Shown here: in pieces, positions 11,901 through 40,720 of the stretch
Layout: every line of letters begins with the position of its first letter
How positions within the stretch are numbered: position 1 is the first letter of the stretch
DNA from: Rhizaria sp. SCN 62-66
Lineage: Eukaryota
NCBI GenBank assembly: GCA_001724265.1
Contig: MEDY01000294.1
Span: forward strand, 1 to 40,885
DNA: 40,885 nt
Direction: 5' to 3'
Made by a program: the position numbers and the translations under genes
The notes under the pieces: model-generated
The model's database searches: none
The model's input: only the letters and a program-made list of their open reading frames with translations
What the model was told of the DNA's origin: nothing

Positions 11901-14877
11901 TGACCACCTGGGTTGCCACTTCATCAAGGCACTGGATGTCATTCTTCGCACGGGAATCAGTAGTAGCAAGGACAAAAGCGAACTCACCAGGCAGTGACTC
12001 ACCCTCGAAGTAAGGGCGTGCAGTAAACTTGTTCTTGTTGATCTCGAACGCAGGATTGGCCACGTAAGGGGCGTCGTCAATGAATGACACGGTCCACTGG
12101 GACACAACAGACTGCACGTGTGAGTAGGCGATAACGCCATTACGCAGAGTGCAGACCACGGAGAACCTACTCGGGAATGTGCCACTGCCATCGAAGTTCA
12201 CGAGGAAGGTCTTAATAGGCGAGTAGGCGGATGCGCTAGCAGTCAAGACTGCAGTCGAAACCTCCCACACGCCAGTCGTGGCATTGGGCTGCTTCATAGT
12301 GCAATCGAACTCGCCACTGAAATCCTGCTTAAAGTTGGTGCCACTGGTGGACTGCTCGAAAAAGTACGGGAGAGTGAAAGCAACCTTTGAGGGCGAGGTG
12401 GAGAGGTCGAACATCGCATCCCAAACCCAGAATGTGGGCTGGTCGAAGGACGAGTGAGTGTACACGGGGTAGAGGGAACCGCAGTGCTGCTCAGCGCCAA
12501 TGAAATAGCTAGCGGCAGAGAACACGCCCAAGATGGTGACACTAGAGATGGGCAAATCGTAGATGCACGGGAAAGGCCCTGTAATATCGAGGTTGTACTC
12601 CATCATGCCAACGAAACCGGACTTAGAACCAGTGTACTGGAACGTGGGACGCATTGCCACCTTAGGTGCCGAAATGTCGGCAAGGTCCTCACCAAGCGGA
12701 GTCGCGATGACAGTGGCGGCACCGTCAATCATAGCCTCCGCGGGGAACTTTCCAGCCCCGAGGTCGCCGTACTCAACGTCGACAATAGTGGTAGTGGTAG
12801 GGGCCTTAGAGGCAGAGTGCACAATAACTGGGTACGCAACAGTCAAGTCCGCAGCATAGATGGTGGGTCGCGTGTCAAGCACGTACTCGGTTGCCGCAAA
12901 AACACCCTGCGTGGCGGCAGGCGCGAGTGCATCATTATCGATGTCGCACGACACGTGGATGAAGACCACACCGCTGGTGCAGATGTCGGGAGCTACCGTC
13001 ACGGAGAACGACTGAGACGCGAGAGTGACCTTCGTGAGAGGGGCAGTCAATTGGGCGTAAGACACGATACGAGGCGCACGGCACTCGTCGAGGATGCCAA
13101 TAGCATTGTTTGAAACGGTCAAAGGAGTACCCGTCTCACCGGCCGCGCATTTAACAATCTGAAGGGCGTTGATGGCGGGCTTGTTTTCCAGGAAAGGATC
13201 TTTGGGAGTGACGTAAACGAATTCTTTGATGGTAAAATCATTAACATCATTGCTAGCAAGAACCAGGGGGAGGACAGGGGCCAATGACTCATCATAAACG
13301 GTAGCAGTCCACATCTTGACAGAGATCTTAGGTGCAACAACAGTAGTGGCAAAATGAACGACGCACTGAACGAACAAGGGGGCAAGACCGCCGAACTGGT
13401 AGATCTCGAGGTTCTTAGCGCTCACGACGTATTGGTTGGCCGTCGAGGTATCAGCACTACCCACAAGCGCACGAACAGCATACTGGTTGTGGCCCAGACG
13501 GCATTCGACACGCGAGATACCGGCAGCCTGGATCGTGACCTCAGCGTTTACACGAATGTCGTCGCCGACGTCGTTCAAACCAGCACCGCGGAGGTAGAAG
13601 GCCTGCTGGCTAAACTGGTCAAACTCGACGCGAATCGCTTCGTTGACGATGATATGATTGTCGTCATCTTCAGAGTGAGCCCCAGTGTTCCAGGACATGC
13701 ATTTCTCGGGGGCGTCCGCGCAAACAAAGTAGGTTGGGTTGAAAATGCGTTCGAGACCCATGTAGTGGGTGGGCTTAATCTGGGCGTTGTACGTGGTCGT
13801 GGGATTGTTCGTGTCGGCAGTGTCAACCGTGATCGCCATGTTGAACGTGGTGGGAGTCGTAGTGCCATGGCGTGCATCATCAATGTTGGACTTATCACAC
13901 TCAACGGTAATCAGAACGTAGTCAACAATGGTTGCGGTCACAGAATAACTGTGAGTGAGACTGTTGATGTCCACAACGATAGGGGTATCAGAACCAAAAA
14001 TGAGAGTAGCCTCAACACTGCAGGAGTCAGTGGTGGTGTCGCCAACAGTGGGATGGTCCTTATCGAATAGCGTGGCACTGGCAGACGCGTGGTCAACCTT
14101 GATAGTGCTAATAGAGAGCTTATAAGCAGCCGTGAGCTCAACATCACGAATGATGAACTCGTACTTGGTGCTCGTACTATCCGCAGCCGCGTCGATGTCG
14201 TCATTGTAATACTTGGCCTTGACACCGTAACCACGGTTCGGGCGAGCCGGAACCTCGAGGTGGCATTGACGCCAATTGGACGAATCAATGTTCTGCATTT
14301 CAAGCGCAGTAGTGGTAGCATTGATGGGGAAGTTGATGTAAGCATCACTGAATGCCTGGTTGGTAGTCTTTTGAGTGGAGACAGGGCCAGTAAGCTCGAA
14401 GTCACACGCGATCACAGTGTTGTAGTCGTCCATAGTGGAGAAGTCGGGCTGGTTGAAGTCAACGTTGGCCTCCCGGAGGTCAACAGTAATCACCCGGCTA
14501 CCGTCGTCCGTAGTTTCTACGAAATCGCTCGAGATATAGCCAGAGAGCTCGGTGCCATTGTGGAGCTTGGAGAAAGAGCACGTCGCGGTCGTCGGCCAAG
14601 TGACGCCAGTAGCCAAAGTGTGCGCGTAGGCATCAACCTTGAAAGAAGCGAAGAAAGAAGTGTTGGTATCGGGGCGCTGGATATCCTTGAGCGTCCACGA
14701 TGCACTTAAGACAGGGTTAGTGGTCGCAGTCAGCGAATACTTGTGCACACAGTAGCCGAAACCGGGCTTACGGGTGGTCTCCGAAAGCGCAGTAGCTTGA
14801 CCCACAAGGAAGAAGAGGGTAATGAAAGCGACACCCCACTGCAACCATCGTTGCGGTGTTGTGTTTTGCCCACTCAT
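2983..14877 (-). CDS. Giant polycystin-1-like (PKD1/REJ family) surface protein with Sushi/CCP array, REJ-like region, GPS/GAIN motif and 5 TM helices, 3964 aa
   Basis: Uninterrupted 11.9-kb ORF, ATG to TAA. N-terminal signal peptide (WGVAFITLFFLVGQATA). Repeated CCP-like Cys patterns (CKPGY..C...W...C). REJ-like LVIDGSMS...KYQWKC. GPS motif WGTGGC...CRCTHLTSF. Five hydrophobic helices with PKD1-like ENHLFFSAFARSP and W...F...VEMFAVKP motifs. Confidence 0.9.
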   Translation of the reverse strand: MSGQNTTPQRWLQWGVAFITLFFLVGQATALSETTRKPGFGYCVHKYSLTATTNPVLSASWTLKDIQRPDTNTSFFASFKVDAYAHTLATGVTWPTTATCSFSKLHNGTELSGYISSDFVETTDDGSRVITVDLREANVDFNQPDFSTMDDYNTVIACDFELTGPVSTQKTTNQAFSDAYINFPINATTTALEMQNIDSSNWRQCHLEVPARPNRGYGVKAKYYNDDIDAAADSTSTKYEFIIRDVELTAAYKLSISTIKVDHASASATLFDKDHPTVGDTTTDSCSVEATLIFGSDTPIVVDINSLTHSYSVTATIVDYVLITVECDKSNIDDARHGTTTPTTFNMAITVDTADTNNPTTTYNAQIKPTHYMGLERIFNPTYFVCADAPEKCMSWNTGAHSEDDDNHIIVNEAIRVEFDQFSQQAFYLRGAGLNDVGDDIRVNAEVTIQAAGISRVECRLGHNQYAVRALVGSADTSTANQYVVSAKNLEIYQFGGLAPLFVQCVVHFATTVVAPKISVKMWTATVYDESLAPVLPLVLASNDVNDFTIKEFVYVTPKDPFLENKPAINALQIVKCAAGETGTPLTVSNNAIGILDECRAPRIVSYAQLTAPLTKVTLASQSFSVTVAPDICTSGVVFIHVSCDIDNDALAPAATQGVFAATEYVLDTRPTIYAADLTVAYPVIVHSASKAPTTTTIVDVEYGDLGAGKFPAEAMIDGAATVIATPLGEDLADISAPKVAMRPTFQYTGSKSGFVGMMEYNLDITGPFPCIYDLPISSVTILGVFSAASYFIGAEQHCGSLYPVYTHSSFDQPTFWVWDAMFDLSTSPSKVAFTLPYFFEQSTSGTNFKQDFSGEFDCTMKQPNATTGVWEVSTAVLTASASAYSPIKTFLVNFDGSGTFPSRFSVVCTLRNGVIAYSHVQSVVSQWTVSFIDDAPYVANPAFEINKNKFTARPYFEGESLPGEFAFVLATTDSRAKNDIQCLDEVATQVVSSGMAIYNYNFGMSPTGIITCGEPGYPIIAGFLNDPAESTFCADTYATAYLDTTYPVDDIKYNATEKSRTFVCDSNMALGFNSVFSPDYVQYCKPPSYDSNGDIVPGGWYSSADFYSAISEDAQCLTLAVVGSTVVLDRVAWYLGGIVYSDRDISSTVFTFSVNYTYELVLKMTFSNTVLDHDDIQFTITHSADVTTNNCQATSSGFFEDEIGDTLVAKISLNCANADQPYIDFKVGTVGVPAAHFFGKVKSFYGQPFEVADAATCIEGDVEAFYDPEAYKAMVNDRTTSSTIVPTEVFMVADETDSRYFCAGKFSDYTIPTSGFFAIGTVPTAFTAGTNAITISLATTNEGGTTAVIGGITYKATPVSGQQYLPSAYLCLNLVAVGPIKGTPALYVGSTSVVNSTTDSEFLDVFYNTVATVIECPDHHFAYQTYDQICDIKTGLWMVDYVRCVPMKCETALPSPPINAEWDMLTNDTASTVPSITYNEVGDAFRAVCPAGYKAPDTAAYGVFCAATKTVSGGVDVFDYEWRTVGTLFECEAVKCDPEVVSNLLHLNASYFVYDAASNYTYLHSNPIVAFANATEGDKVTVSCATNAGLYSNFGSATSYTCTNGAWVSSGAVAFPDTECYDARCPITILPNYNQANVAFAEKYYNRTDLVDNVGINCCSTNATSCADFKVYSDYSCGIDNLGLPKWHGSYFYCASSKDQCDGALPTIAHSEPGLEGLYHATPATPTVDAHTKNGDSLRVTCKPGYSVNHAALTGAALQCTHTVGSGFGFKTILASGFTATNPLCIRTSCVLPSIPTGVELTVNRFFMDGAFYALDGTFAHYTCPGTQTLVGPTSSKCVNGVWNNGAAPRVSCVELGCSVNDDNIDYKDYSGVALDSADAQPGDTAFASCNHTYARFETPLYATSEGGDFDATQVRAVRLPVVCVFNAATGTSVWKTYVADGTQADVPMCSVSFCELTQAAASLARWQGSVIMTSNIHGFNYFTNVAGPIKASPGDELHYTCPENIGTPSSIDFTTLCVGQKSLGLAATVTSATDFYGWETMPVCTYTDCNNQYFSDPNVDNGSSQTNLGNAFEVECKEGYIPAGVAPRCSAAGWDVPATATLCKVDVKCDALDSGLYNMERIDAVAGLTDYSVGTTHSVKCVDSDMEIPATSSFIIKCVADTATKGKFTAYPATLAMPVCAVPACTPNTGVEIVSNNLKCVNISHALVYMPTMTLMVDGDPKLATTCTDGTMADYRCFNRDDKCKEENLPDAPVFGEYFLDTDHGIDYQMICKDPTAIPVNMPIYKCVQRFESTGEFVSVFELTTSYNADPNCYYSTGTCETFALKEDTINNLSDPMIVNDVDLNGKTVSCPAGYYPVSRDELSFTCVNGRWLQSSSNALASAVTASSLCKPIPCPEHPIGTSGLNILDRSANHESYRVQCTNLDYTMYDTTGIVNASITTITCDVATGYWQSMPTCARICDAALTVDNGNVHFSKAVFPGNFVAAGTDVFLQCKPGYHAAEQELSTCKNTGGAWVSKDNSAIPSKLACEFDVEFTDNKVFRMTDAMTFEIKMKNVGTTTAFMTPSNENCYAFFEDVTADSFGSAAICALHVEGIRVRVSDDFTLLKNSPVYIRGDVIFSSLVADGATSGPFLPRTEMISIDVDTNKLMLTSTTSQVTYGIFADSCTDTVDIDFLAYFTTASHYAGRNLKISASTTTPNTLSNAAVANINAMLGEYNNNGWIESRQAVHNGLSHKAIFGPNMVYAATSVNIKLTATNWLGYSADYQLLFSLSTNGNIVPKLQNDGVEVYVGEQFKVAAFNPAVNCLANTKITSFVWTYANQVVSSTTATFTAVSSSTTATYVLYYTVDGFPRSASQTFDVVIKPIVLHPIIAGPVYTQHRPASDPSANIDAAGAFSHNVFDRTASLVIDGSMSHAEGAYSSALKYQWKCMMDIYYDATISQGTSMEESVPVADVSSTNRNVWVDCSVRAYGRKFTQYGSKLTLSNEDLAALFVGQGELRIRYDLTVSSDIDDVNPATVSTMVRLIDSEAHHVVSYVTVAIPDSQLASFGADTIRYSYRRQRPQRYTVLPGQDLTLRGVISAPSSTYTSFWSCSGIDLAQFALSPTTNAATLTISGAAFVGGFDAECRISVLAGNVGIPSDTSVVAYNGRDAHYAYMRIVVHTPPYVTMSVAVEPTVTTVTANSVSVTNADMLYSFFLIRGSSRIAVSLNQTQKALKYFTSPASNTFEIEVVDSYGAMTLASKTAAVPSGTSTNGNSQQSAQAALTAASPSDYIMQALSAAANLLGNNTDAANAIRVELIKYATEKLSSFAGLEGSNAAGSTGVLEAVATLVGSGSNTTQPSVEVRSAALAAVSAHIEALATSGSKATPNTAKIAVETFAKVAEVAAVEKNVTEITLAARSFAAQLPFIVYNLLGASTAESGSVSLTSGKVTVTAQRFTLAAAQAAFAQAGRTVRVSSDFFQSLAAQGLTTVDAAEITHDDAAFTSSVGAATEESAVSRVVGLAFFTGYTAVDTSSISRVLLTAAHPNGLTSSAHRYRTCQFLDESSYALDSERAAWGTGGCVVDSQEETYTVCRCTHLTSFRVRAGYDLYAGDGWLQLTNHNLDNNRNPIYMILVWFGAAIVLVIIAASVDGSKKVQGLKMLVGQWATGEAPKRGDAIEGAHCSNAVLMTKSMLCENHLFFSAFARSPLSNIGGATRMLASSIVLLSAFAVTVMFWGGSQARNDIDNFGGVMFLGALVMIGVSIILHFVLSHTRSYGVKDFLYQYAFEAAQLFHTGSSDYFTTAEANALKARADPAHAALYAQAMNAAVVGNEAELHTLLRQCIVIDEAAATATFNRKGVSIGAGAIFSYGFLVAWVFGLSILICAFGIQLENTVSTTFGTWIGSAFATIGVEMFAVKPFLFFMYSLLATTCSANPASAGAYEQDAVLTAYEKLRAYAPPTAAHGEDTADGAVAVEEDGATI
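4125..4265 (-). other. GPS autoproteolysis motif of the polycystin-like protein (predicted H-L/T cleavage between nt 4138 and 4137)
   Basis: Translates C-QFLDE...W-GTGGC-VV...CRC-THL-TSF, matching the C..W...GC...CxCxHL|TxF GPS consensus, about 30 aa before TM1. Confidence 0.88.
7280..10640 (-). repeat. Tandem array of ~14-15 divergent Sushi/CCP-like modules within the giant protein
   Basis: Recurring ~60-90 aa units with four Cys and a Trp before the last Cys, e.g. CVLPSIP...CPGTQTLVGPTSSKCVNGVW...C and CDAALTVDNG...CKPGY...C...W...C. Boundaries are approximate. Confidence 0.8.
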
Positions 14878-17108
14878 GATGAGCTACTTATTTGGAAAGC
14901 AAGGGCGAATGAAATTAAAGCAAGGATGAAGGCGAGAGCGGAGACAAGGCGAAGAGGCACAGGAGGAAAGAAAGAGGGTGGAAACAAGGGGGAAAGTGCA
15001 TGAGTGAGAAAAAAAGGTACAAAATGGAATAAATCAAGCAAGATCTGAAATAGTGAACCATTGGCAAACGTGTACAGGTGAATGGTAGTGTAGGCAAAGA
15101 GTGAGCCAAAAGAGTTGCCGAAGACCATAAGGACAAGGCGGAAATGAAATGAAACTGGTGTACAGGGCTAGACCTTGCAGCGCATGATAGCTGCCCATTG
15201 CCAAAGCAATATTGAGATCTGGACAAGCACAATGGCGATAGTATCAGTTCAATTACGTTTCTCAGCGAAGCAGGCCAAGGTGCAAATGAAAACGAGCCGC
15301 GCCCAATGGCCCATCCCAAGCGGAATGAGATCAAGCAAGCCTTTAAAGCATACGAACGATAGCATCCAGCAAGGATCGCATATAATTTGGGCAAAGAAGG
15401 CAACTGATTACTTATGTGAATCAATCGCCGAGTCAGTTCGTTGTCTATTTACGCAGCAAAAGGCTCGAAAAGGTTCAAGGGGTTGGCAGAGTCCACGGCG
15501 ACGGCGGCTTAACTTAGTCTATTATATGAGTACCGAAAAATGTCAATGTGATTTTTGTATTTGTATTTAGGCCACTTTTCTAGGTCCATTCTTCTCACAG
15601 TCACAACATTGGCAGGACGACAGGCGGATTGATCATGATACCCCCAATAATATCTTTCTTCGATCCACTAATTTCATTTCGACGTGAAAACGCACATTTA
15701 CCGCGGCCCCATTTGTTCTCTTGCCCCCATTTTCTTACACTCCCCTCTCCATTGCCCATTTATCTCTTCGCTAGCTCGACTCGCCATGTACGTTTTCTAT
15801 CGTTGAGCCCGGTTCTGCCCTACGCATCGCAGGATATCTCGATTTTGTCTTTGAGTTGTAGGGTGCCTGTCCTTTATAGCCACGCCTTTGCTTTTGGCGC
15901 ATTCGTTTTTGTGAATATCACGGCGGTATCCAGTCATTTTTGTCTCAGTGATCAGTTTCGCTGTCTAACTTGAGGCTTTCAATGGCTCACGCCACAACAT
16001 GCTTCGAGCGACTCATCAGTAACTGTCACAGCAGCATATCATGTACGCTCCATGAATAACTGGATGTGGAGAAACATATGTGTGTAAGTAATGCTATGGT
16101 GCATAATCCGCGAACCACAGCCAGAAAGTTGAATGTCTTGCTGGAACCATCAGTGACAAGAAGTCGCACTTCAACCTCTTGCTCTGAGAGACATGTAGCA
16201 TTTCAGGTATGATGACTTTCAATTCAAACATGCCAATGATTTATGACTATATTTGATTTCGATTCACTGTATAGACATATGTTGGTCCATTCAACGCTTG
16301 TTCTTTCCACGTACGTTTTCTGCCACAGGCTTCAATTGCAGTTACAATGCTTCGTTAAGTGTGCAGGACTAGACACACCTAGAGTCTCATAGTGTTTGGC
16401 GGAGGTTCAGTAATGATGTTGCTTCCGGAGACGACACCCAGTTGAGCAGCGGTCGTAAGTACAACAGGCGTTGACGCGTGCTTAATCACGGTCGTGGGTC
16501 TACAGTGAGGCACATTGAAGTCGATAACAATGTCACAAGCATCTATTTTCACTTATCGGATTGGCCCGGCAGATGTGACATCAGTCCAGGATCATGTGTG
16601 GTATCAGTCCAGGATCTCTCGCTGACGCTACTGCGCAGCCGTGATAACAGTAGCGCATTTCCCAGTCTTAACTCTCATCGTTGATGACGACATTCGTCCT
16701 CACACCGTTCACTTCAGGTTGTGTGAGTTGACGTAAGACTTGTCGAAGTGACTCTTTTATTTGTCAGTCATAATGTCTTTTTCTCGCTTGTCGCTCAATA
16801 CAACTCGACGAACTTTTTGGAACAGGATGACACCAGGACACTCGTTCTGCTGCAGCCGGCGGAGATCTTAAGGCATTTTTTGGCCAGACCTGCTAGATTG
16901 AATCGTCGCATCAAATAACCGTAAATCCACATGTCTTTTGAAGTACTTGCTTCTTCTTTGTTTTTTTACATTATATCATAGTTGTATTACTTCATTATCC
17001 AGATATAGCATCAAATCGTCAATTGTTAATATGCCTTTTCACAAGTCAACAGCTCGAAACGTTCTACTACCTTCATCCGATAACGATACACTCTTTTACC
17101 GTTTAGCT

Positions 17109-17554
17109 ATGCCGCCACTGATGTAGTCATAGTGTAATTCCAGTTCCGTTCTACAGCCCCTCCCAGTGCACCCTCTGTCGGGCGTGCTCTTGCCCTTGAC
17201 CAGTGCTACCTTGCAAGAGGCCCCCGCCTATCACGACGAGCCTCCCTGCGCCCGCGACCAAGCCGCCGCGGTTCTCTCCTCACTCGCCCAGGTCTACTCT
17301 GCTATCAGCGCTTACACCGACCCGGCCTCGTGCGTAACCACGGTGAGCGCAGTGCCGCGCGCGTGGTGGGTGCGCTGGGCGCGTGCCTGCGGTCTTTGTC
17401 CCGACCACGCCCACACGCACTCATTCGCCCACTTCGTCGCCACTGTCCGCGCCATTCTCGCCTCGCTTGCTACTGCTAACACCGCCCTTAGGGCCGGCAA
17501 CCCAGACACTGATGCAGGAGTGGCACCTGAATGTCGCAATGCGAATGGTGACTC

Positions 17555-17607
<53 letters not shown>

Positions 17608-20600
17608 TTAGCACGCGGTTTGACGAAGACCCTCTTTCGCAGCCACTGCTATCATTGCCGAGCCTTGTGCTGCCCCAGTGCAAAGGCACCGCCGGGCCTG
17701 ACCCCGCGGCTCCGATGCTCGTCGCGTCCGACCTCATCACCACGCTACCGAGCCCACCGTAGACCCACACAAGCGCCGCTTTCACCGCAACTGCTGCCCA
17801 TGCCGCTCGCGACCGTGACGACGATCGTGTCCATGACAGCTCCACCACGTCAACTACGAGAACACCTGCAGTGGCGCGCGCACCCTCAGCCATTGCCGGT
17901 GCGGTTGCCGCTGCCGCTGCCGCTCTGCGCGCTCAGGCGAACGGCAGCTCAGTCTCTAGCACTCCGGGAGCTGCAAGCGGGAATGTAAGTCTCAAACGCA
18001 TCGCCCGCTGCCGCTGCTGCCGCGCCGCTGCCGCCACACTTGCACAAGGGCCAGTGCCCAACTCCTGTGCGAAGGCATACCAATCTGCTGGCTTTGAGGC
18101 TGTTTCTGCAGACTCTGCGCCTGCTGACAGCGTTGCTCCTGCGCATGCTCCGCTCGTTCTGCCGCCTGCAAGCTGTCTCCACCTCATCTCAGCCGCTCTC
18201 ATGCCGCCGCCCCCAACCGCTGCAGACACTGCCGACCCCTCCGTCCCATCAAACTCTGCTTCTGCGCTGCCGCCAGTTCTGCTGATACCCGGCGCGCGCA
18301 GTCAGCTGCAGTGGCTTCCTGGGTCAACCGCGGCGCTGCTGGCGCGTTGGCACGGCGCCGTGGCCCGCCCGGTCCGCGCCGCCATCGCCTTGCCGCTCCC
18401 GGTTACCGCCGGCGGCTCAGCGCGCAGTGGCCGTGGGAGCGGCAGTGGAGGCGGCACTAGCTGTGCGGGGATGCTGTGGCGTCTGGCGCTGACGCCAGAG
18501 CCCGTGCCGGTGGCCGTCTCGCTTGCGCCGCTGCCCGGGACAACTCGCACTCAGTCGCATTCGCAGTCTCACTCTCAGTCTCAAGCTCAGTCCCAGTCCC
18601 AGTCCCAGCCGCAGCTCTTGCCGGCGGTTCTCGCGACTGTGCTGGCTGCCCCGTCACTGTCTCTGCAAGCCTTGGTTGCCGCCACAGTTAGCACAAGCAC
18701 AGGCGCTGGTGGCAGCCCCAGTCTTAGCACACCTGCCGCCAACGGGATCACTCACGCCTGTGCCGGTGCTGGTAAAGCCGCTGGTTGTGACGCGGCGTGC
18801 GTTATGCTGTTGCCACCAGTCTGGCCTTCGCAGAGCATTTCCACAGTCTCTGGCAGCGGTCAATCTGCTGTGGGTAGCGCCGAGCCCCCCGCCGGGCCCG
18901 GCCGGGTGTACGTGCGCTGCAGTTACGAGCCAACCTTCTTCAGCGCCAGCGCGAATGCGAATGCGAGCGGTGCGTGGGGACGCGACGCAGACGACTCAGC
19001 ACAGCTACCCGATTTGCCTCACGCTACAACCACCGCCGACGACACTGACGCCCTGAACGTGTCCTGTATCGATGAGAATGGCCCTGACGCCGCCGCTGCT
19101 GCTGTTGCTGCAGGTGCTGGTTTGACGACCCCGCCGCGCCGCCGCCCCGCCCCCGCCTCAAGCGAAACCGCTGCCGCCGGCGCCGTTGCTGTTATCGGAC
19201 CCGGCCGGTTATTGAGCGCGACGCCGGCCCTCGCTGGGTACCTCGCCCGTCGGGGGTCGATGCCCACGGTCACAGCCGCCGCCGCCGCTGCCGCCGCGGC
19301 CGCCGCCGCCGCCGCAGCAGCAGCGTCCGGCACGAGCGGTTCGAACAATGCGACCGTGGCGGCGGCGGCGCCGTTCATGACCCCCGGGCCTCGCCTGCCC
19401 TCCGCCGTTACCGCCGCCGCCGCTGGAGCAGGAGCCGGAGCCGGTGCCTCTGCCGCAGTTGTGTTCGCCGCCGGTGCAGGCGCTTGGGCTGACCCAGGCG
19501 CCGCCGCCGCTGCCGCTAGCCGCGTGGACCTCGTTGCGCTCCCGCGCTGGGCCATCGCCCCGCCAGAGATCGCAATTGCACCCCTCGAAGCACTCGCCCC
19601 CGCTGTGGCCGCGGGCGCGGCGGGGGCGGGGATGCGGGAGAGGTGGCGAGGTGCCGCACTCGCGCTGCCGGCGAGGTATGTCCGTGCGGCTGCGGTCGCG
19701 CGGGCGGCGGCGGCGGCGGAGGAAGTGTTGGCTGAGGCTGCGCTCAAGGCGGACGGGTTTGACGATTCGCCCCGTAAACGCTTCAACCATCAGAAAAAGA
19801 ATGCGTGTATGCGGGAGAATGGCGCGAGTGAGAGTGCCAGTGACAGCGATTCTGACGGCGACGACGATGATGACGATGATGATGAGGATGATGGTGACGC
19901 AGAGAGTTCTATTGGCGGAGAGTGGGGCAACACCAGTAGTGCAAGGAGTCCTGACGTCGGCGCGGCCGCCGATGTTGCGATGCTCTGGCTCGCCGTCACC
20001 CCGGTAGCCACCGCTGACTCGAGCACTGACTCAAACTCTGGCTCGGGTGACTGTAGTGCGCAGTTTGCTTCTCACGCTGCTACTGTTTCTGCTGCTGTTG
20101 ACTCTGCCGTTGTGGGTGTTGAGACTGCTGCTGCTGCTGCTGCTGCTGTTGATGGCTGGTGGCTGCGGGCCGGTGCCTGCATCGACATCGACGCCAACGC
20201 TGCTTCCGCACTCGCCAACAAAACATCCTCACTCAACGACAAAGCCACCGCCGCACTCGCGTCGACTGCGACTGCTGCTGCTGCCGACGCTTCTGTTGGC
20301 GTGGAGCATACAGGTGGCCCGGTTGCGACTGCACCGCGGTGGGAGCGCGGCGTCGTCGTCGCCCGCCGCCGGACGCACTCCCCCACCACAGCTGAGTCCC
20401 ATGACCCTGACACTGACTTGGGGTGTGTGCGAGTGTGTGTACGGTGTGTCTCAGCACCGGAGCTGGGTCGCTGGTGGCTTCCGTTATCCGACCCGGCGGC
20501 TGCGGCGGCACTCGCGCCCGCGGGGTCCCGGGCACCAGGTTTGTACGCTGTGGCGCAGACTGGCCCGCTCGCGGTCGCGCCGCCGCTGTCTCTGTCCACG

Positions 20601-23600
20601 TCTCTTTCACGGTCACTCATGCGGTCGCAACTACTCCTACAGGCACAGGCGCAGGCGCAGTAGCAGAGTAATGTGCGTGTTGCGGGACTGCGCAACCTCG
20701 GCAATACCTGTTACGCGAATGCAGCGCTACAGTGCCTGCTGCAGCTGCCGGCCATCGCGCCGTGGCTTGAGGCTGCGCGGTTCACCGTCTCGCTCGACCC
20801 GCGCCGGCCGCTGAAGAGCAAGACCAACGCTAACAGCTCCCCTTGCAACGGCAACAGCAACTGCGGCCACGACAAAAGCGGAGATAACGATGACGCTGAG
20901 AGCAAGTGTGAGCGTGAAGGCAGCGACGACACTGGCGGTATGGTTGCGCTCGCGCTCGCCCGCCTTGCTCGAGACCACGCCTCCGCCTCTCTCGTCTCCA
21001 ACAGCCCACCTCGTAGCGCACACGCTGCGGTGTTGTCGCCGCAGCCGTTGGCGACGCGTCGTGGTGGTCCGATGTCGGCCGCGGTGTCTGCGTCGGCTCT
21101 TCGGCGTGCGCTGTGTGTTGCGCACCCGGCTTTCGGCGGGCATGAGCAGGAAGACGCGTCGGAGTTCTTGATGGCGCTGCTTGACACGCTGCACCAGGAT
21201 CTCAACAGGGCACGCAACAACACCAACGCCGACACGAACCAGAATAAGAGCAGTGCTAACAGTGCCGAGAGCAGCCCCAGCGAGAGTGAGACTGCAAACA
21301 ATGTTGCTGCTGTCAAGACAGCGGGTGTAAGCCTCAGCGACGACGATGCCGAGGACGCCGCTGACGCAGCAGCCGCGCGAGCTGCCTGGTGCAGTCATTT
21401 GCAGTCCCACCAATCCCCCGTCGTCGACGCCACACACGGGCTCCTGCGGCACGCTGTGCGCTGCGGCCACTGCTCTGCGCGCGTTGTGCGATTCGAGCCA
21501 TTCACACTGCTTCCGCTGCCGCTGCCGCCCGCGCGCGCCGTCACAGTGACCACGCTCTACCTGGGCCCACTTGCGCCGCTGGACGACCTCTCGTTCACCG
21601 CTACAAACGCGGCCACTGCGGGTAATCACCGCAACAGCTGCAGCAGCGTCGGTGAGGTCATCGCGAAGCACGCGCAGGCGTGGGCGCGCGCGTGGGGCCG
21701 CTCCCGCTCCACCGGCGTCCGCTCCGTGACCCTCGCACTCTCGCCGACTAGCCCGGTCGCCGCCCTCCGTGCTGCCGTGGCCGCCGCTCTGTGCCCCGTG
21801 CCACTGCTCGATTCCCCCGGCGCCGGGGCCCGCGCGCCGCTGCCACCTGCCGCCGCCGCCGCCGCAGCCGCACGATCCGTCCTAGCGTCGGCACTGGCGG
21901 TCGGCGTTGTGGCGAAACACCGTGTGTGCGCTGTTGTGAAGCCGGGGGCGACGGTGCTTGAGCTTATGAACTGGCTTGAAGACGCGGCGTACGAGGCCAA
22001 ACACAGTGAAACACCAACCTCCACTGTTACCGAGGCTGCTAACGGCTCTGTGAACAGTGTCGGCGCGGCGGAGATTAGTGTCGGCGCGGCGGAGATTGTG
22101 GTTTGGTTAGTTCCTGACGCTGCGGAGGCCGCCGCTGCTGCGATCGCCGCTGCTGCCGCGACGGCGGCTGTTGAAACCGGTGATAATGCAACTGCTTCTG
22201 CCGTTACTGCTGTTGCTGAGTCGAACGCTAATAGTGCCGCTGTTGAGGACGCGTCTGTTTTATCTGATGTTATCAGTGAGTCTGGTGTCGTTACAGTGCA
22301 ACTCACCCACACCGTGCCCGCCGCCTTTGCCTCAACTGCTGTCACCAACGAAAGCAAGGGCGGCGATGACTTGTTCGTGCCTGCGTCGGTGCCTGCCCTG
22401 CTGGCACTGCCACGCACGACGCTGCGCTCCCTGCCTGTGTGCCGCCTACGCCGCGCAGCACGCGCCGCCGCGGCGGCCACTTTGCGTGGCGGCTGGCTCG
22501 GGTCCCTGCTCTCCCAGTCACAGGCGCCGTCTCAGCAAGATGCGACGGTTGCTGTGGTTGTTGCCGCAGAGGCCGCGGGGTGTTTCCGGCTCCGTCTCGT
22601 TCGTCCCCCGGCTTCTGCTTCTGTCAGTGCAACGCTCGGCAATGCCAGTGAATCTAGCATTGCAAAGAGCGATTCGACTGAGGTTCTGTGGAGTGATGAT
22701 GCGCCGGTGACGGTTGCTTGCCGCTGCGACGCCATGCTCCACAACGACTACAGTGACGCTGGCGTTGCCAGTGATGCGGGTGTCGCGGACTGTATCTGCG
22801 ACTGTGCGCGTTGCTCCGAGCGCCTCGACCTCACCGCACTCGCCGCCTCCGCTGACGCCGACAGGAGTCCTCAGGCTGCAACTGCCAGTGACTCGTCCGC
22901 TGACTCACATGGGGACGGTGAGATCGCTCTGGGCGTGGAAGCCCGGCTTGAGTGGCTCTCTCCCGCCGCGGGCGCTGCGGCGCGTGAGGCAGTGCTGTCG
23001 GCGGTGGGCGCGGGGGCGCACGCTCTGGCGCAGAGGCTGCGGAACCACTGCCGCGCGTTCGGCGCTGGCACTGAGCGCCTGCTAACGCACAGCAACAGCT
23101 ACAGCAACGATGACTCTGACGGCGATGCTGCGGGAAACACTGCAAAGATATCAGCAAACAACAACAACAACAATACTACTCCAGCTGAACCTAAGAACAC
23201 TCCTGAGGTGACTAACTCCAACAACAGCGGCGCAGCGCCGTCGTTGCAATTGCCACAGCCCCCCCGGTTGTCAGACTCGCCCCACCCCGACCCCTGTCTC
23301 GACGACGCCCTGGACCTTTTCTCCCGCGCCGAGTCCCTCGCGGGCCCCGATGCCTGGCGGTGCGGCTCCTGCGGCCACCGTGGCCACGGCGAGACCCGCA
23401 CATCGCTCTGGCACGCGCCCGACGTCCTCTTCATCACACTCAAGCGGTTCACTCCAACAGGGAGGAAGTTGCGGCAGCGGCTCCGGTTTCCCCTCTCCGG
23501 GCTCGACCTGGGGCCGTGGGTGCGCGGGCCCAGCGCGGCGGGCTCCGTGTACGACCTCTGCGGTGTCGTCAACCACCAAGGCTCGCTCGCGGGCGGACAC

Positions 23601-24089
23601 TGCACGGCCACGGTCAAGCACATGGGGGGCGCGGGGTGGTTTGCCGCGTCGGACTCTGCGGTCACGCGCGTCGCTGGACCAGTACCCTCCACTGACCACA
23701 CGCCCGCTAACGGCGCTGAGTTCAACGCTGAGGCGGAGACTGAGGCTGAGGCGGAGGCGGTGGAGCGGGCGGTCGTGACAGGCGCCGCGTACGTCTTGTG
23801 TTATGCTCGCAGGCAGACGCTGCGGTACGGCGCGGTGGTCGCGGCGGCGGAGCGGCTCGGGGCCGGGCCCGCGGGGGCGCCGATGCGCAGGCCGCCGCTG
23901 CCGAAGCCGTTGCTTGCCAGCGAATGCGACCACGACGCCGAGGGAGATCGCCGCGACGGCAACGCTCCAACCACCAACAAGGGGATTAAGAGCGGCGAGA
24001 GTGGTGAGTGGGTTGCGGAGCAAGTGTTTGGATTTGCCGCGCCCCCATTAGCGTCGCTGAAAGCGGATGACTATGAACTAATGCACTAA
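17109..24089 (+). CDS. Ubiquitin-specific protease (peptidase C19, USP4/11/15-like: DUSP + Tudor-like + UCH), ~2326 aa if four in-frame TAG codons are read as sense
   Basis: ORFs 17166-17762, 17871-20663 and 20673-24089 share one frame with ATG 17109 and are separated only by TAG (17124, 17130, 17760, 20661); the frame ends at TAA. Cys box GLRNLGNTCYANAALQCL, QEDASEFL, Zn knuckles CGHC/CGSC, His box YDLCGVVNHQG...GGH, AYVLCY. DUSP-like VPRAWWVRW...LARWHG. The 5' end is uncertain. Confidence 0.8.
17556..17606 (+). repeat. (CAG)17 microsatellite encoding polyQ in the USP
   Basis: 17 perfect CAG units in the coding frame. Confidence 0.97.
20685..23811 (+). other. UCH (peptidase C19) catalytic domain with large Ala/Ser/Asn-rich insertions
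   Basis: Catalytic Cys codon at 20709-20711; His box near 23550-23600; WFAASDSAV; AYVLCYAR. Confidence 0.92.
22056..22097 (+). repeat. Perfect 21-bp in-frame tandem duplication (SVGAAEI x2)
   Basis: AGTGTCGGCGCGGCGGAGATT occurs at 22056-22076 and 22077-22097. Confidence 0.95.
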
Positions 24090-24544
24090 GTTCCCCACAG
24101 TAGCTCGTCTCCAACACAGTACCTGACAGCAATTTATCGCGACTTTGAGCGAGTCGCAACAACTGCGCAGACATACCTTTGATCGCTTTTATCTAGACAA
24201 TTAATTCTGTATCAATCAATTTTTATGTTGTATCTCACTTTGCATTTGTGTATCCACACTTTGAATACATCTCTCCATTTCATTAATCGCTGTGAAGATG
24301 TAATATTACAACATTGATGACCAACATAACATTGTCGATCTAGTAATGATATTTTGTATTTATATGGAGAACTAACCTATGTAACAGAATCTAGACTCGC
24401 AACTAGAGAATCTTCGATTGGAAAAAAGTAACGTGACAATAACGTAGCTTCTCCGTCCTTGAAAAGCAAATAACCATGGTAAGAACATTACACAAGCTAG
24501 AACGAGAACACTAAGAGCATCGTCCATATATCGCTTGCGCCGTC

Positions 24545-27500
24545 TTACACAAGGCCCGCAGCGGACGCGGCCGCGCCGACTGCATTGGCAGCCGCGGCCG
24601 CCACTGCGCCCGCCGCGGAGCCAGCGGCCGCCACTACCGCCGCCCCCGCAGCGCCCGCCGCCGCCCCGGCCGCCGCGCCCGCTGCGGCCCCCGCAGAGAG
24701 GACAGCTCCCGACGCAGCCTCAGCGGCCTCGGTCACGGCAGCGGCTGTGTCATTGTTACCGGTTCCATCGCTGTTGCCGGAGTAAAGCGCCGCAAAACTC
24801 GACGCCGCTGAGCTAAGCAGCTCCGTGAGCGGGCCCGTGAACGATCCGGCGGCCCGGTCCGCGTCCCCACCCTCCCCGTGCTCCGTCCCGTACCCGCCGT
24901 GCGGCTTGCGCGGCCCGCTCGAGAGCAGCAGATACAGCAGCGCTGCCTCGGCGACGATAAGCCAGAAGGCGAAGATGTACTCGCGGCTGCACGCGCGGCG
25001 GTACCAGGCCCGCCCCGCGGCGGCGGCGTCGTCGGCGTCTCCGGCAGCCACCGCGCGGGCCACGGCGGCGCTCAGCAGCGACCCTAAGTTCCCTCTAGCG
25101 CTACCATCGCCGCCACCGGTCCCGTCACCACCACCGGTGTTGTTGTTGTTGCGGCCTGACTTGCGGGATTTGCCACGCGTTTCAGCAACTGCAGCGGTCG
25201 TGGTTCTGGCTGTTGCGGTGGCGGCTGCGGCTGCTGCGGCGGCGGCGGTTTGTTGCCGTTGCTGCTCCTGCTGCAACTCCTGAGCCAGAGTCGTCCTGCC
25301 TGGGGCCCTCCCGGGCAGCGTGCCGCCTGCCGGAGGCGCGGGGGTGGGGGCATGCAGCATCGGCATCGGCAGCGACACCGGTGCCGCACCAGCGCCAGCA
25401 GCACGCTGTTGCCCTACCATACCGCCTGAGTTAGATGACGGCAATGATGAGGAGGCAGGGGGCGGGGGTGCGTCGGTGAGCAGAGCGGCGACGTCGACGG
25501 GCAGGCGGCCGCCACTGCCCCGCGTCATGTGCTGCTGTGTTGCTGACTCAGCAGAAACGACAGAAGCAGCGGCGGCGGCGGCGTTGTTGGCGTCCTCCAA
25601 GTCAGCGTCTGCGCCCGCGGCGACCGGACCTGTCGTGAGCGCGCAGGCCGGGGCCAACGCCCTCAGAGCGGCTGCCTCTTGGCGGGCGGCGACGATGGTG
25701 ACGTAGAGGGCCCGCAGCCATAGCCGCGCCACGGGAGGCTCAGCCGAGAGGCGGTAGACCTCGGAGGTGCGTCGGGAGCTGAGGGAAAACACCACGTGCG
25801 CCTGCCTCTCAGTGGCAGAACCGCCGTTTCCACCACTGTTGCTGCTGGGGGGATTATCGTAGCGACTATTACTGTTCGATGAGGGGGAGGCAGAGGAGGC
25901 GGAGAAGCCAGCCCCGGGCAGCGGCGGCTCAGACGCGGGCGGGGTGCGGCGAGGCCTCTCAACGTGCAGAGTGCAGAAGGACAGGTCGAGGCAGCCGCGG
26001 AGGTCGCCCTCGGGCTGGAGGCGGTAGGCGAGAAGACAGCCTGAGAGCTGGAAGAAACGGGGCCGCCACTTGTCTCCCATGATGCCAAACGAGTACTTGT
26101 GGAGGTAGCCGGTTTTCGTGGTCAGGGAGGCCGCTCGGACAAGGACGCCCGAGGCGGGGGTTGCGAGCACTGCTGATGCCGCACCGGGGCCGTAGCCCGC
26201 TGCGCCACCGCCGTAAGAACCGTTGTTATATCCATTGCCACTGCTAGTACCACCACCGCTGATGTTGTTGTGGGTAGGGGTGGCGAGGACGTTGTGAGTT
26301 TGAGTGTTGTAGTACTGAGTCGACGCGGGGGACAGAGCATTTACAGCAAAGGCAGAGGCGGCTGCGAGGTCTGTGTTGTAGCGGGAGAATGACGTGGCAG
26401 ACGCGGCAGAGACCACCGATGCAGAGTCATCGTTGTCATCGTTGTCGTCATCATTGATGTTGTTACTGCTGGAGGTGCCTGACCGCGAGCGTGACCGTGA
26501 CCCTGACGGTGAGCTTGTACCTTCCTCATCGTCGTCGTCATCATCGTAATCACCATTGTCAGGGCCGTTCTTATGGTTATTTGAGCCTGTTGATATGACT
26601 GCGACTGCTGCTGGTGTTGAGACAGTATTAGCATTGGCGCGCGAGGACCGTGAAAAGGATCCAGACCTCACAATTTGACCGCCCGCGTTAACAGCATTCG
26701 CACTGACACTGAAACTGCCCCTCTGCCGTCCCTGCTGATGCTGCTGCTGAGACTGAGACTGAGATTGAGACTGAGATTGCGGGGACGCAGCGTCGGCGAA
26801 CGCGTACACCAAATCCCTCGCCACCCCACTGTTGCTGCCATTGCCGTTGTTTTGGCTACTGTTCTGATTGTGGTGATGAGACGGGGGTAGCCCGGCGGAG
26901 GACAGCCTACGCGCCGACTGTGTCCCCGTGCCCGTGCCCGTGCCAGTGCCCGTGCCGCGTCGCCGCGTCCGCGCTTGCACATGGAGCAGAGCCCAGGAGA
27001 TTCGGTGCGCCAGCAAAGCGCGCAGCGGCCGCGGACCGGCCAGGGCGGGCAACAACCCCGCCGTCGCCGCCGCCTGCGACTGTGCGCCCGTGGCCTGAGA
27101 CTGCGATTGGGGGTACGGCGAGTGTGTGCCTGAGACTGACCGTGAGCGTGCATGGGGGCCGGCCGAGACTGCGCCGTCTGCCGCCGCCAGGGACGCAGAA
27201 ACAAACGCCGCCGTGGCTGCATCTACCCCGGTCGCAGAGTCTGGGAGGTTGATGTCAAGGTCTAGCAGTGGGACAGGAGCGAATGCGACGGCGGTGGCAG
27301 ATGATGAGTCGAAGAACATGCCCCTGAGGGCGCGCGCTAGCTCTGGGGAGGAGAACTGGAGCGAGGAATACGCGGCGGGCGCGGCGGTGGCGCGGCCCTG
27401 GTCGACTTCGACGCGGACGATGGCCTGGCCGTCCATCGAGAAGAGGACGCGGTATCCTGGCTGAAGCGGCGTGCGGGCGAGTGCATCGAGAAATGGCACG

Positions 27501-38325: not shown

Positions 38326-39232
38326 ATGTCTATCATCGTTGGCGTGGGCGTCTTTGTCCGTCGGGGCACCAGTGTCCTTGTTGGCAAGCGTCTCAACTCC
38401 CACGGCGCGGGCACCTGGTCCCTTCCTGGTGGCCGCGTTGAGTTCGGCGAGTCCTATATCGAGACGGCTGCGCGCGAGCTTAAGGAAGAGACCGGCATCG
38501 ACGTCACCCACTTGGTCCCGGCCGCGCAACGGGCTCCGCTCACTGTTACGCTCACTGGCGAGGCCACATTCCGCCCCGCAACCAACGCCACGTCTCCCGC
38601 TGGTGCGCCCTTTGAGGCCGCGGCCGTGACAGTGTTCTGCCCGGAAGAACGCGCTCATATGGTTGTACGTCTGGTTGTGGTAGACGCGCCGGCAGATGTG
38701 ACGCCCGTTGTGACGGAGCAGGATAAGTGCGAGGTACGTACATCATCAAAGTCCAAATGAACTGTTACCAGATTTTGATTTAATGAAGAATGTGCTGTTA
38801 ATTGTGTATATGTATTGCTTTTTTTTTAATAGTTTTGTCTTCTCTCTCGATATATCTCCCGTTTCTTTCTCAACACAAAAACCTGCTTCCTATAACACTT
38901 CGTTTGCTTCTCTGCTTCTTTGACTTTTGTAACAGAGCTGGCACTGGGTGCCGTGGGACGACATTCGCTCTCTCTCCCGCACCCGTTTTGCTTCCCCTCT
39001 TTCGACTGACGCCATTGCAGTTACTGCTGCCACTTTTGTTGACGGCGAAACTGCTCCGGTGACTGTATGTGATGGCGTTGATACGGCGGCGGCGCGTGAT
39101 GCCGCAGTGAAACTGGGCCCCGATGGGGAATTGTTGCGCGGCGGTAAGGTGTTTGCACCGATGCTTGCGGTTGCGTTGTCGGACTGGAACCCTACTCTGG
39201 CCATCGCGGGGGAGATGATCCGCACCATCTGA
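38326..39232 (+). CDS. Nudix hydrolase, NUDT15/MTH2 (AtNUDT1)-like, two exons (38326-38733, 38936-39232), 234 aa
   Basis: VGVGVFV...VLVGKRLNSHGAGTWSLPGG and Nudix box GGRVEFGESYIETAARELKEETGI. Splicing joins EQDKCE to SWHWVPWDD, restoring the family EPxKCExWxWxxW motif. Ends in TGA. Confidence 0.92.
38734..38935 (+). other. Spliceosomal intron (202 nt, phase 0) in the Nudix gene
   Basis: GAG|GTACGT donor, AT-rich body, pyrimidine tract, TAACAG|AGC acceptor; removal restores a conserved motif in frame. Confidence 0.9.
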
Positions 39233-39743: not shown

Positions 39744-40136
39744 TTACCCGTGGTAGAGCTGTCCGTTACGGCAGGTGAGCTGGTCCGGACTGTAGCAAGC
39801 AGTCCCACACAGCGACGACCGCTCATGCGGGCAGACGAAAAAGTCCTCCAGACAGATCGACGGTCCCGGATTAAAGCAGGCGTCGCCGCAGCGATGCTCG
39901 TGGGTTGCGCAGACGAGTCCGTCGCGGCAGATCTGCGGGCCGTGGCGGTAGCACACGGCGTCGGTGGTGTTGGTGTTGTAGACCGTGATGGGGCAGATGT
40001 GGTCCGTGGGCGGGCAGATTGGCGCGGGACGCTCCATAAAGGCAACCACAGCAAGAACCGCGGCGGAGGTAAGAAAGAGAAAAGCCAGGAGCTGAAATCG
40101 GTGTGCGATGGCGGGGAAGTACAGGAACAACTGCAT
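39744..40136 (-). CDS. Small secreted or membrane-anchored Cys-rich protein with CBM52-like (beta-1,3-glucan-binding) module, 130 aa
   Basis: Hydrophobic N-terminal segment LLAFLFLTSAAVLAVVAF. Repeats CGDACFNP..SIC...F.CP...CGTACYSPDQLTCRNGQL match the CGxxCYxPxxYxC pattern of CBM52. ATG to TAA. Confidence 0.72.
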   Translation of the reverse strand: MQLFLYFPAIAHRFQLLAFLFLTSAAVLAVVAFMERPAPICPPTDHICPITVYNTNTTDAVCYRHGPQICRDGLVCATHEHRCGDACFNPGPSICLEDFFVCPHERSSLCGTACYSPDQLTCRNGQLYHG

Positions 40137-40720
40137 TGGCTAGTTGTCTCTTCAAGTTGCAAATGCATAAAGATGGAAGGGTGATGATAACTCATGTTTT
40201 AAGAAGACTTATGACTTTCAAATAACAGAAATAGATATTCTGTTAGATTCAATAGCTATCTTTAAGTAAGTTTGACGAGTTCAACGAATACACAAGCATT
40301 TATATCCTTGACAATCTCAAGTGCAACATGTCTTAGAAATGACTGTGAGCGCGTTGCAGCTTCCGCCATACAACCGTTACCATTCCTCGCACAAAACAAA
40401 ACATCATTACTACAACAATGCGCATATTATTACAATATTTGTTATAAAACAAGACATCAACAAACATCCGATACTCTTGTGTAACTTGAACAAATCAGCG
40501 CGACTAGAAAAGCCAATTTGTCGTGACCGTTGCAACTCCGCATCCACGATGCGTACATACGTATCAAGAGGTAGCACGTTCGCTAAGCAGTTTTGTCGTC
40601 ATTTGCTGTGAACGAATCGTTAGCAAGCTCGACACCAGATTGTGACGCACGACATTTTACATAAAAAAGCATGTGAGACGGTGACTAAGACGGCCCACGG
40701 TGTATTCCCCTCGCTGTGTC

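Follow-up and report, generated by a model that had tools for sequence, protein, structure and literature searches.

In-frame TAG codons in a large deubiquitinase gene of a wastewater protist: UAG as a possible rare sense codon

A stretch of DNA of 40,885 nt (the window) carries at 17109-24089 one gene for a large USP4/11/15-type deubiquitinase, and in the DNA the frame of this gene is genuinely interrupted by TAG codons at 17760 and 20661. The interpretation that accounts for most of our observations, which we hold tentatively (probability roughly 0.36), is that ribosomes pass UAG as a rare sense codon. They would most simply insert Gln, with UAA and UGA terminating translation. The change from CAG to TAG would be one transition, here within a QA repeat. 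UAG would then be a rare and strongly counter-selected codon, leaky or only recently captured, and not an ordinary sense codon. Taken alone, the window could reflect either TAG as an amino acid or the recent death of a gene. The features of the gene are as follows.

17109-17111, plus strand: first candidate ATG, in AT-rich surroundings
17124-17126 and 17130-17132, plus strand: two in-frame TAGs (codons 6 and 8), on which the X3 and X4 DNA contigs agree
17157-17759, plus strand: block 1, 201 stop-free codons including a polyQ run, best score in frame 0
17352-17462, plus strand: weak DUSP-like motif (VPRAWWVRWARACGL...), located with a small HMM trained on 4 DUSP segments
17760-17762, plus strand: in-frame TAG at the border of blocks 1 and 2 (PSPP*THTS)
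17763-20660, plus strand: block 2, 966 stop-free codons, Ala/Ser-rich and of low complexity
20661-20663, plus strand: in-frame TAG (QAQAQAQ*Q), 16 codons upstream of the catalytic Cys
20664-24086, plus strand: block 3, 1141 stop-free codons
20682-23804, plus strand: USP (UCH, PF00443) catalytic domain, Pfam E 3.7e-38, profile positions 1-254 of 254
24087-24089, plus strand: terminal TAA, the end of the frame

The first-pass annotation had described a single frame of 2327 codons with TAGs at 17124, 17130, 17760 and 20661, the last in a Gln-Ala repeat, and a terminal TAA at 24087-24089. The translation agrees in each respect. It had also called the flanks of TAGs 17760 and 20661 GC-rich, and the only 60-nt windows below 45% GC within 17100-24089 are those at 23130-23160. 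Frame 0 holds one TAA (the terminal codon), four TAGs and no TGA, and there is no frameshift across the 2327 codons. The remaining two frames contain 29 and 115 stops. The three stop-free blocks share one frame, with single TAGs between them, and the stops per block in the other five frames number 3-9 (block 1), 8-42 (block 2) and 10-64 (block 3). Given the base composition, a block of 966 codons would lack both TAA and TGA with probability 1e-5, and one of 1141 codons with probability 1e-7. Thus, the frame is open far beyond chance. Frame 0 also has the top codon score nearly throughout 17109-24089. A frame-1 ORF that spans TAG 17760 (17383-17988) was rejected, its codon score being below that of frame 0. 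Translation with NCBI table 15 (TAG = Q) opens the frame. The first in-frame ATG of block 2 is about 147 codons in, and we did not find family matches to this block.

The UCH domain begins 7 codons past TAG 20661. The catalytic Cys codon is at 20709-20711 and the His codon at 23598-23600. Among PDB entries the domain matches USP15 and USP4 best, and all four boxes (Cys, QQD, His and Asp) align. The Cys box (GxxNxGNTC) is present as GLRNLGNTCYANAALQCL at 20685-20738 and aligns with USP15; GGHEQEDASEFL, NHQGSLAGGHCTA and WFAASDSAV represent the QQD, His and Asp boxes and align with the corresponding USP15 segments. Judged from the sequence, the catalytic motifs of block 3 are intact. The catalytic domain contains an insert of about 585 residues (the alignment ends at residue 291 and resumes at residue 877 of block 3). 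The protease domain had been said to lack an ATG of its own, and it does: the Cys follows the TAG by 16 codons, and no further in-frame ATG occurs until 20940, past the Cys box. Under the standard code, we did not find an open frame that leads from a start codon into the Cys box. All six homologues scanned have 156-1032 residues N-terminal to the UCH domain, and four of the six have a DUSP domain. The open blocks, the intact motifs, the lack of TAA, TGA and frameshifts, the missing start after 20661, the best codon score in frame 0 and the long extensions in the homologues favour translation of UAG.

The DUSP-like motif in block 1 scored 4.9 bits with the DUSP HMM, a score reached by 7/1000 shuffles, and hhalign gave 47% probability against DUSP over just 18 columns. 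We did not find a Pfam match to the DUSP domain (PF06337) up to an E of 10. The AlphaFold2 single-sequence model of block 1 has a pLDDT of 44.7 and is unusable for the DUSP fold. The protein may be laid out as an N-terminal block with a DUSP-like motif, a long disordered linker and an intact catalytic domain. Human USP15, USP4 and USP11 (DUSP-UBL deubiquitinases; PDB 6crn, 2y6e, 8oyp) likewise have the core boxes, a large insert between the two halves and a long N-terminal extension, the DUSP-like motif of the window being weak. They differ in that the linker in the window is 966 residues of low complexity, the frame has TAGs, and a DUSP domain is confirmed by neither Pfam nor the fold model.

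In wastewater reactors the organism is abundant and close to clonal, and it occurs in 6 studies dated 2015-2025. One contig of X3, a run from another study, covers 16034-17547 and a second covers 20378-21906, with 0 differences, and a 2025 contig (X4) covers 16557-17547. The TAGs at 17124 and 17130 match letter for letter in both X3 and X4, and TAG 20661 does so in X3 only. TAG 17760 is covered by none of the contigs listed, and its support is the end of a 190-aa ORF (P0010) in another assembly, which has a shorter polyQ and the same end residue (...LPSPP). The TAGs are carried by other assemblies and are therefore not errors of the source assembly. The first-pass annotation had suggested looking for CAG in place of TAG; the other assemblies keep the TAGs, and no alternative letter occurs at any of them among the variants listed. 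Sequence errors, or minor (heterozygous) alleles chosen by the assemblers, are thus a very improbable source of the TAGs, even with a run depth of just about 5 and with rare variants dropped from contigs.

Contigs from a polyA-RNA library (X5) are colinear on all three blocks, including 17163-17347 in block 1 and 19757-19995 and 20234-20608 in block 2. The X5 contigs listed leave 17004-17162, all four TAGs and most intergenic bins uncovered, and absence in regions without RNA cover is unusable as evidence. The presence of the TAGs in other assemblies and the colinearity of X5, including across a potential donor at 20439 (see below), favour translation of UAG.

The codon use of the window points the other way. 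The other three long ORFs (3964, 1127 and 3123 codons) had been described as lacking in-frame TAG, and we count 0 in 8,214 codons. Two of the three are equally low in complexity. About 64 TAGs would be expected in these codons if TAG/CAG tracked TTG/CTG. The in-frame total is 4 in 10,544 codons (0.04%), and TAG is avoided as strongly as TAA and TGA; the ratio TAG/CAG is 0.017 vs 0.35 for TTG/CTG and 0.38 for AGG/CGG. In-frame UAG is neither spread over many genes nor as frequent as a sense codon would be. It occurs in one of four long ORFs, which bears out an earlier caveat that the codon would be rare or gene-biased and that the evidence comes from one gene. All four TAGs would fall in a single gene with P 0.03; Fisher's test (4/76 vs 0/221) gives 0.004. 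A search with ARAGORN and Rfam found no tRNA genes of any kind in the window, and there was no Rfam match within it. The absence of TAG from the 8,214 codons elsewhere and within each block, its confinement to a single gene, the lack of a tRNA in the window and the nature of the SNPs in the gene (2/2 amino-acid-changing) argue against translation of UAG.

The terminators lean towards the opposite inference. Six genes had been said to end in TAA (five) or TGA (the Nudix gene) and never in TAG, which our count reproduces; the sixth gene in this count, a Cys-rich ORF at 39744-40139 on the minus strand, was our own choice. With a TAG share of 20-30%, the standard code would give no TAG among six terminators with P 0.12-0.26, which makes their absence weak evidence. 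A purine follows all six true stops and one of the four TAGs (TAG-T, TAG-T, TAG-A and TAG-C; P 0.033). The lack of TAG terminators, the contrast in purine context and the lack of intron-like segments inside the gene favour translation of UAG. Only two of the TAGs, 17760 and 20661, are safely coding. Both lie in unconserved linkers, and therefore no conserved column names the residue; the alignment at TAG 20661 moves by one residue between matches. Our tentative inference is translation of the TAGs, with Gln as the inserted residue. Several parts of the first-pass case for UAG as sense stand. There is one gene, its TAGs are real in the DNA, its protease has no start under the standard code, no AT-rich intron surrounds 17760 or 20661, and none of the genes in the window has TAG as its terminator. 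The step from there to decoding as sense is tentative, and the avoidance of in-frame TAG points in the opposite direction.

A serious competing possibility, short of being probable, is a standard code combined with a recent inactivation of the deubiquitinase gene. A near-clonal population would have fixed two nonsense changes (CAG to TAG in the simplest case), the gene would still be transcribed and its death would be too recent for further decay. The 5′ TAGs would belong to a leader or an intron, with the true start in an upstream exon. This would agree with in-frame TAG being as rare elsewhere as TAA and TGA and with the TAGs being confined to one gene. Among one-step nonsense changes in the gene, 53-58% yield TAG, the commonest outcome, so that TAG-only interruption is weak evidence for a variant code; two TAGs out of two would arise with P ~0.3. 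The population is also near-invariant, with 2 SNPs in 10 kb (runs from 3 studies, 2017-2025); both are between-sample differences in the deubiquitinase gene and alter a residue (one S to N, the other R to C). Loss of a non-essential, paralogue-type enzyme would be plausible. An acceptor-like site at 17156 and possible donors upstream of it would accommodate the missing exon. Against this, nonsense changes are 2.2% of the point mutations in the gene, so that about 90 neutral substitutions and several indels would be expected to accompany two of them. The decay signs are two to four premature TAGs; the 2327 codons contain no frameshift, TAA or TGA (P would be roughly 0.005-0.05), and every catalytic motif is kept. 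Contigs of the polyA-RNA library lie on all three blocks. Inactivation would also need a hypothetical upstream exon; failing that, four nonsense hits would have to be assumed, with two inside a span of 8 codons (P 7e-5). In general terms, the gene resembles a unitary pseudogene in its fixed nonsense codons, in their restriction to one gene and in the avoidance of the codon elsewhere. It differs from one in its lack of frameshifts, TAA or TGA and motif loss, and in its RNA-library contigs.

The 5′ end bears on how many TAGs have to be explained. A second in-frame ATG is at 17121, and this and 17109 are the sole in-frame ATGs 5′ of block 1. Two further features are relevant here.

17149-17156, plus strand: splice-acceptor-like site, ttctacag followed by CCC, at the switch from AT-rich to GC-rich DNA (read from the sequence only)
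16684-16722, plus strand: speculative first exon of 13 codons, opening with ATG and bordered by a GTGAGT donor at 16723

An exon may start at 17157, in phase 0, from the candidate acceptor at 17156. The implied 5′ intron (16723-17156) would be 434 nt long with 40% GC. The 13-codon exon is not significant, because such an ATG accompanies three of the six sites in 14900-17156 that resemble donors. The stretch with TAGs 17124 and 17130 may be leader or intron rather than coding, because it is AT-rich and 5′ of the acceptor-like site. The leaders of the 1127- and 3123-codon genes are GC-rich or CT-rich, unlike the AT-rich surroundings of ATG 17109. The probability that at least 2 of 4 random TAGs fall within the first 8 of 2327 codons is 7e-5, which likewise makes a leader or intron the likelier identity of 17124-17132.

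Under the standard code, the TAGs might instead be spliced out in GC-rich introns with lengths that are multiples of three, e.g., 20439-20666 (228 nt, donor GTACGG), a putative intron near 17760 and a 5′ intron ending at 17156. We consider this improbable. The neighbouring Nudix gene provides a reference intron.

38734-38935, plus strand: Nudix intron, 202 nt, 33% GC, GTACGT...polypyrimidine-AG

The Nudix frame and its SWHWVPWD motif pick up again at 38936. The donor GTACGG shares 5/6 letters with the Nudix GTACGT, the lengths are similar (228 vs 202 nt), the codon score falls in all frames at 20409-20708, and the acceptor-like ttctacag at 17156 lies at an AT/GC boundary. However, the GT..AG candidates that flank the TAGs are 62-69% GC with weak, purine-rich acceptors, whereas the verified intron is 33% GC and has a pyrimidine tract. 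The X5 contig at 20234-20608 is colinear and runs over the donor at 20439, and none of the 15 joints listed (of 72) has GT..AG ends around a TAG. Near 17760 the best donors are GTGCGT or GTGAGC, and their use would remove the DUSP-like block. Two frame-keeping introns, both without TAA or TGA, would also be unlikely. Tiny introns ending in ...TAG, checked by eye, were rejected for frame-breaking lengths or poor donors. Joints that skip kilobases were rejected as well; they have sides of just 20-28 letters at GCC or CAG repeats and are therefore read as repeats of other organisms.

Gene-specific recoding, through programmed UAG readthrough or U-to-C editing of the mRNA with an otherwise standard code, has a small chance of being correct. 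The restriction of the TAGs to one gene would suit it. CAR-YYA is a readthrough context, and the CAG after TAG 20661 is a partial match to it. However, the 100 nt 3′ of the TAGs fold no better than shuffles (z +0.77, +0.17 and +0.12), and the four TAG contexts have nothing in common. The RNA contigs listed contain no altered letter at the TAGs, though none of them covers a TAG.

To our knowledge, nuclear reassignments of UAG only are few (Iotanema, one rhizarian and some ciliates), and all described cases are mature, with the codon widely used. In the portion of the literature drawn on here, Iotanema spirale (UAG = Gln) and the sainouroid rhizarian exLh (UAG = Leu) both have UAG-only nuclear codes, with 384 UAG in 71 exLh genes and genuine stops of UAA (56) and UGA (15) (PMC5304391). 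The window resembles them, as far as that account extends, in that the in-frame stops are TAG only and the genuine stops are UAA and UGA (here 5 TAA and 1 TGA). The same account places their UAG in most genes and at conserved columns, with supporting eRF1 changes (PMC5304391), whereas the window has its 4 TAGs in one gene, none at a conserved column. In Blastocrithidia, UAG makes up 1.4-1.7% of codons according to the part of the report cited (PMC12153298), compared with 0.04% here. About half of the transcripts of Amoebophrya sp. ex Karlodinium veneficum are described, in the section relevant here, as lacking reassigned stops (PMC6394959). This gene-biased spread of reassigned codons is a precedent that favours translation of UAG, but Amoebophrya has an AT-rich genome, and its reassignment extends to all three stops and to many transcripts. 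The ciliate accounts, likewise in part, describe UAG reassignments in phyllopharyngeans and a split UAA/UAG code in an oligohymenophorean (PMC11687900, PMC10553269), and UAG is uncoupled from UAA there as in the window. The window is not ciliate-like, being GC-rich with 0.5-2 kb spacers and canonical GT-AG introns.

A more specific form of UAG passage, rather unlikely in our estimate, is an early capture of UAG in a deep-branching wastewater protist without sequenced relatives, with UAG read as Gln and an inefficient stop. Being costly, UAG would persist at just ~0.04% of codons, in the disordered linkers that a gene under weak constraint encodes. If ribosomes pass UAG while the codon is nearly absent from coding sequence, this would be a reassignment in progress. 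It would represent a natural intermediate of UAG-only reassignment in a GC-rich genome and would make the 'codon capture' and 'ambiguous intermediate' models testable on a living organism. If the gene is dead, it is a useful warning that a frame interrupted only by TAG is weak evidence for a variant code, because more than half of nonsense changes in GC-rich genes give TAG.

We did not find an orthologue over the TAG sites among 1.84 billion representative proteins; the search gave 17 matches, one being the window's own piece and 16 being distant USPs around the Cys box. An exact 42-mer had 0 matches in the genome contig and viral contig collections. In a word-index search of shorter proteins, the junction region had no match. 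Our literature searches gave nothing relevant on a wastewater eukaryote with a reassigned stop. The clusters of P0010 and P0009 are singletons. In viral contigs, the UCH piece had 0 relatives and the Nudix exon matched 9 loci, with likeness limited to the Nudix box. The word-index protein search returned only a self-match for the 3964-aa protein and 8 distant matches among 8000 candidates for the UCH block, low-complexity words probably swamping the search. Among the metagenome matches listed for the C-terminal UCH piece, which do not include the window's own contig, is a distant USP locus (L001) with 27% identity.

The candidate gene, for a USP4/11/15-type deubiquitinase, lies in a frame at 17109-24089 that runs for 2327 codons and is interrupted by TAG at 17124, 17130, 17760 and 20661, with neither TAA nor TGA ahead of the closing TAA, as the first-pass annotation had read it. 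The TAGs at 17760 and 20661 delimit three blocks of 201, 966 and 1141 codons (17157-17759, 17763-20660 and 20664-24086), each stop-free in frame 0; the remaining five frames contain 3-64 stops per block. For block 2, base composition gives a 1e-5 chance of finding neither TAA nor TGA; for block 3 the figure is 1e-7. In nearly all 150-nt windows from 17259 to 24000, frame 0 came out best on a codon-usage score that had been trained on the window's three other long ORFs. We tentatively propose, with a probability of roughly one in three (0.36), that UAG is read through in this organism. With a rare or leaky sense UAG, the open frame, the absence of start codons and the pattern of stops would all be explained.

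Block 3 matches the full profile of the USP catalytic domain (PF00443, E 3.7e-38), and the domain begins 7 codons past the TAG at 20661. In alignment, its four motif boxes (Cys, QQD, His, Asp) match USP15 and USP4, and it carries a large internal insert, as in the USP4/USP15 subfamily. All six homologues scanned have 156-1032 residues ahead of the UCH domain, including a DUSP domain in four of the six. Pfam detected no DUSP domain in block 1 and the fold model was unusable; a weak DUSP-like motif sits there in the expected place (4.9 bits with a small HMM, a score reached by 7/1000 shuffles; 47% by hhalign). The three blocks are one gene. The first in-frame ATG past the TAG at 17130 is 15 codons ahead of the TAG at 17760, and the next past 20661 is, as previously noted, at 20940, downstream of the catalytic Cys codon at 20709. 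Under the standard code, then, no active protease is possible without splicing.

The window is a eukaryotic contig with GC-rich coding sequence (55-73%), AT-rich spacers (38-50%) and long intron-free ORFs on alternating strands. The intron used for reference is that of the Nudix gene:

38326-39232, + strand: Nudix hydrolase gene with a single intron; the sole gene with a TGA stop.
38734-38935, + strand: Nudix intron, 202 nt, 33% GC, GTACGT...polypyrimidine-AG (TAACAG end); the only verified intron in the 40.9 kb.

No AT-rich stretch resembling this intron occurs inside the candidate gene, where the in-frame GT..AG candidates are 62-69% GC with purine-rich acceptors. At the top candidate, 20439-20666 (228 nt, donor GTACGG), the coding score dips, but a polyA-RNA library contig is colinear with the DNA over 20234-20608, spanning the donor at 20439. 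Removal of the TAGs by splicing at 17760 and 20661 is unlikely. Gene-specific recoding or RNA editing is more improbable still; we found no RNA structure downstream of the TAGs (z +0.8, +0.2 and +0.1).

The two 5' TAGs, codons 6 and 8 of the frame, sit in AT-rich DNA immediately upstream of ttctacag|CCC (17156), the boundary at which GC-rich sequence starts. Under random scatter, two of four TAGs would fall inside 8 codons with P 7e-5. Because of the AT-rich setting, the acceptor-like site and this P value, 17124 and 17130 probably belong to a leader or intron under every hypothesis. They are therefore set aside, and two TAGs count (17760 and 20661). The start codon of the candidate gene is expected in an upstream exon, for which there is one candidate:

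16684-16722, + strand: candidate upstream exon; not significant.

Met-Ser opens four of the six genes (ATG AGT, ATG AGC or ATG TCT, at 14877, 27913, 28521 and 38326), and a C/T-rich leader of ~100 nt precedes the three long ORFs. Both features are missing at the candidate start codon, 17109.

The TAGs are not assembly errors. DNA contigs from a different study (run X3) cover 16034-17547 and 20378-21906 with 0 differences, and one from run X4 covers 16557-17547. A 190-aa ORF from another assembly, with a shorter polyQ, terminates at the same ...LPSPP as the TAG at 17760. A sequence error or minor allele is accordingly very improbable. The polyQ at 17545-17600 has 17 Q in the window vs 9 Q in that ORF (53-kb ENA contig), which may be a true polymorphism or an assembly collapse. 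The source organism is uncultured; 10 of the 12 runs listed, from six studies (2015-2025) of bioreactor, wastewater, activated-sludge and fuel-cell samples, carry part or all of 16600-24300. Over 15000-25000, runs X3-X6 show two single-letter differences in 10 kb, G>A at 21337 and C>T at 22722, both altering the amino acid, and in run X4 a TT is inserted at 16960. Across the studies compared, the organism is nearly clonal. Sequenced relatives of it are lacking: among 1.84 billion representative proteins, the N-terminal two thirds of the gene matched only a piece of their own, and the 3964-aa neighbour matched only itself in a word-index protein search.

The caveat raised in the first-pass annotation stands, in that the three other long ORFs, 8,214 codons in all, contain no in-frame TAG; nor do the three blocks internally. 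The TAG/CAG ratio is 4/241 = 0.017, against 0.35 and 0.38 for the comparable first-position pairs TTG/CTG and AGG/CGG, which predict ~64 TAGs in the three other ORFs. The UAG-sense rhizarian exLh has 384 UAG in 71 genes (PMC5304391) and UAG makes up 1.4-1.7% of codons in Blastocrithidia (PMC12153298); the codon is thus common in these described lineages, whereas here it is rare. A sense UAG must assume unprecedentedly low codon usage. That all interruptions are TAG is weak evidence, since 53-58% of the nonsense codons that a single change can produce in the candidate gene are TAG. TAG indeed terminates none of the six genes, an outcome with P 0.12-0.26 under the standard code. The genuine stops (2983, 24545, 37884, 24087, 39230 and 39744) form a strong and uniform termination context, TAA in 5/6 although third codon positions are 72% GC. 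A purine follows all six vs 1/4 TAGs (P 0.033), which says that the TAGs lack the form of a terminator, although this context cannot tell sense from a recent mutation.

Alternatively, the gene may be dead through a recent double nonsense under the standard code, a history almost as probable as readthrough, and one that accounts for the rarity of TAG. Nonsense is, however, 2.2% of point mutations in this gene, such that two would be accompanied by ~90 neutral substitutions along with several indels. Frameshifts, TAA, TGA and motif loss are nevertheless all absent, and RNA-library contigs are present on all three blocks. A dead gene depends on luck (both changes TAG, no frameshift) as well as on an upstream exon that is so far unseen. 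We infer this weighing of the readings with odds assigned under comparable priors, a remainder of which falls to none of them.

The intron-free 3964-aa ORF (2983-14877, - strand) has an adhesion-GPCR or polycystin-like layout: it encodes a signal peptide, Sushi repeats and a GPS motif (GPCR proteolysis site), and its C-terminus is a multi-pass membrane region. The nearest in-frame stop upstream of its ATG is a TAG two codons away (14884-14886, - strand); were TAG sense, the frame would stay open 50 codons further, to 15033. A small Cys-rich, secreted-looking ORF with a signal-peptide-like N-terminus and a TAA stop (39744-40139, - strand) is overlapped by a 158-aa ORF in another frame.
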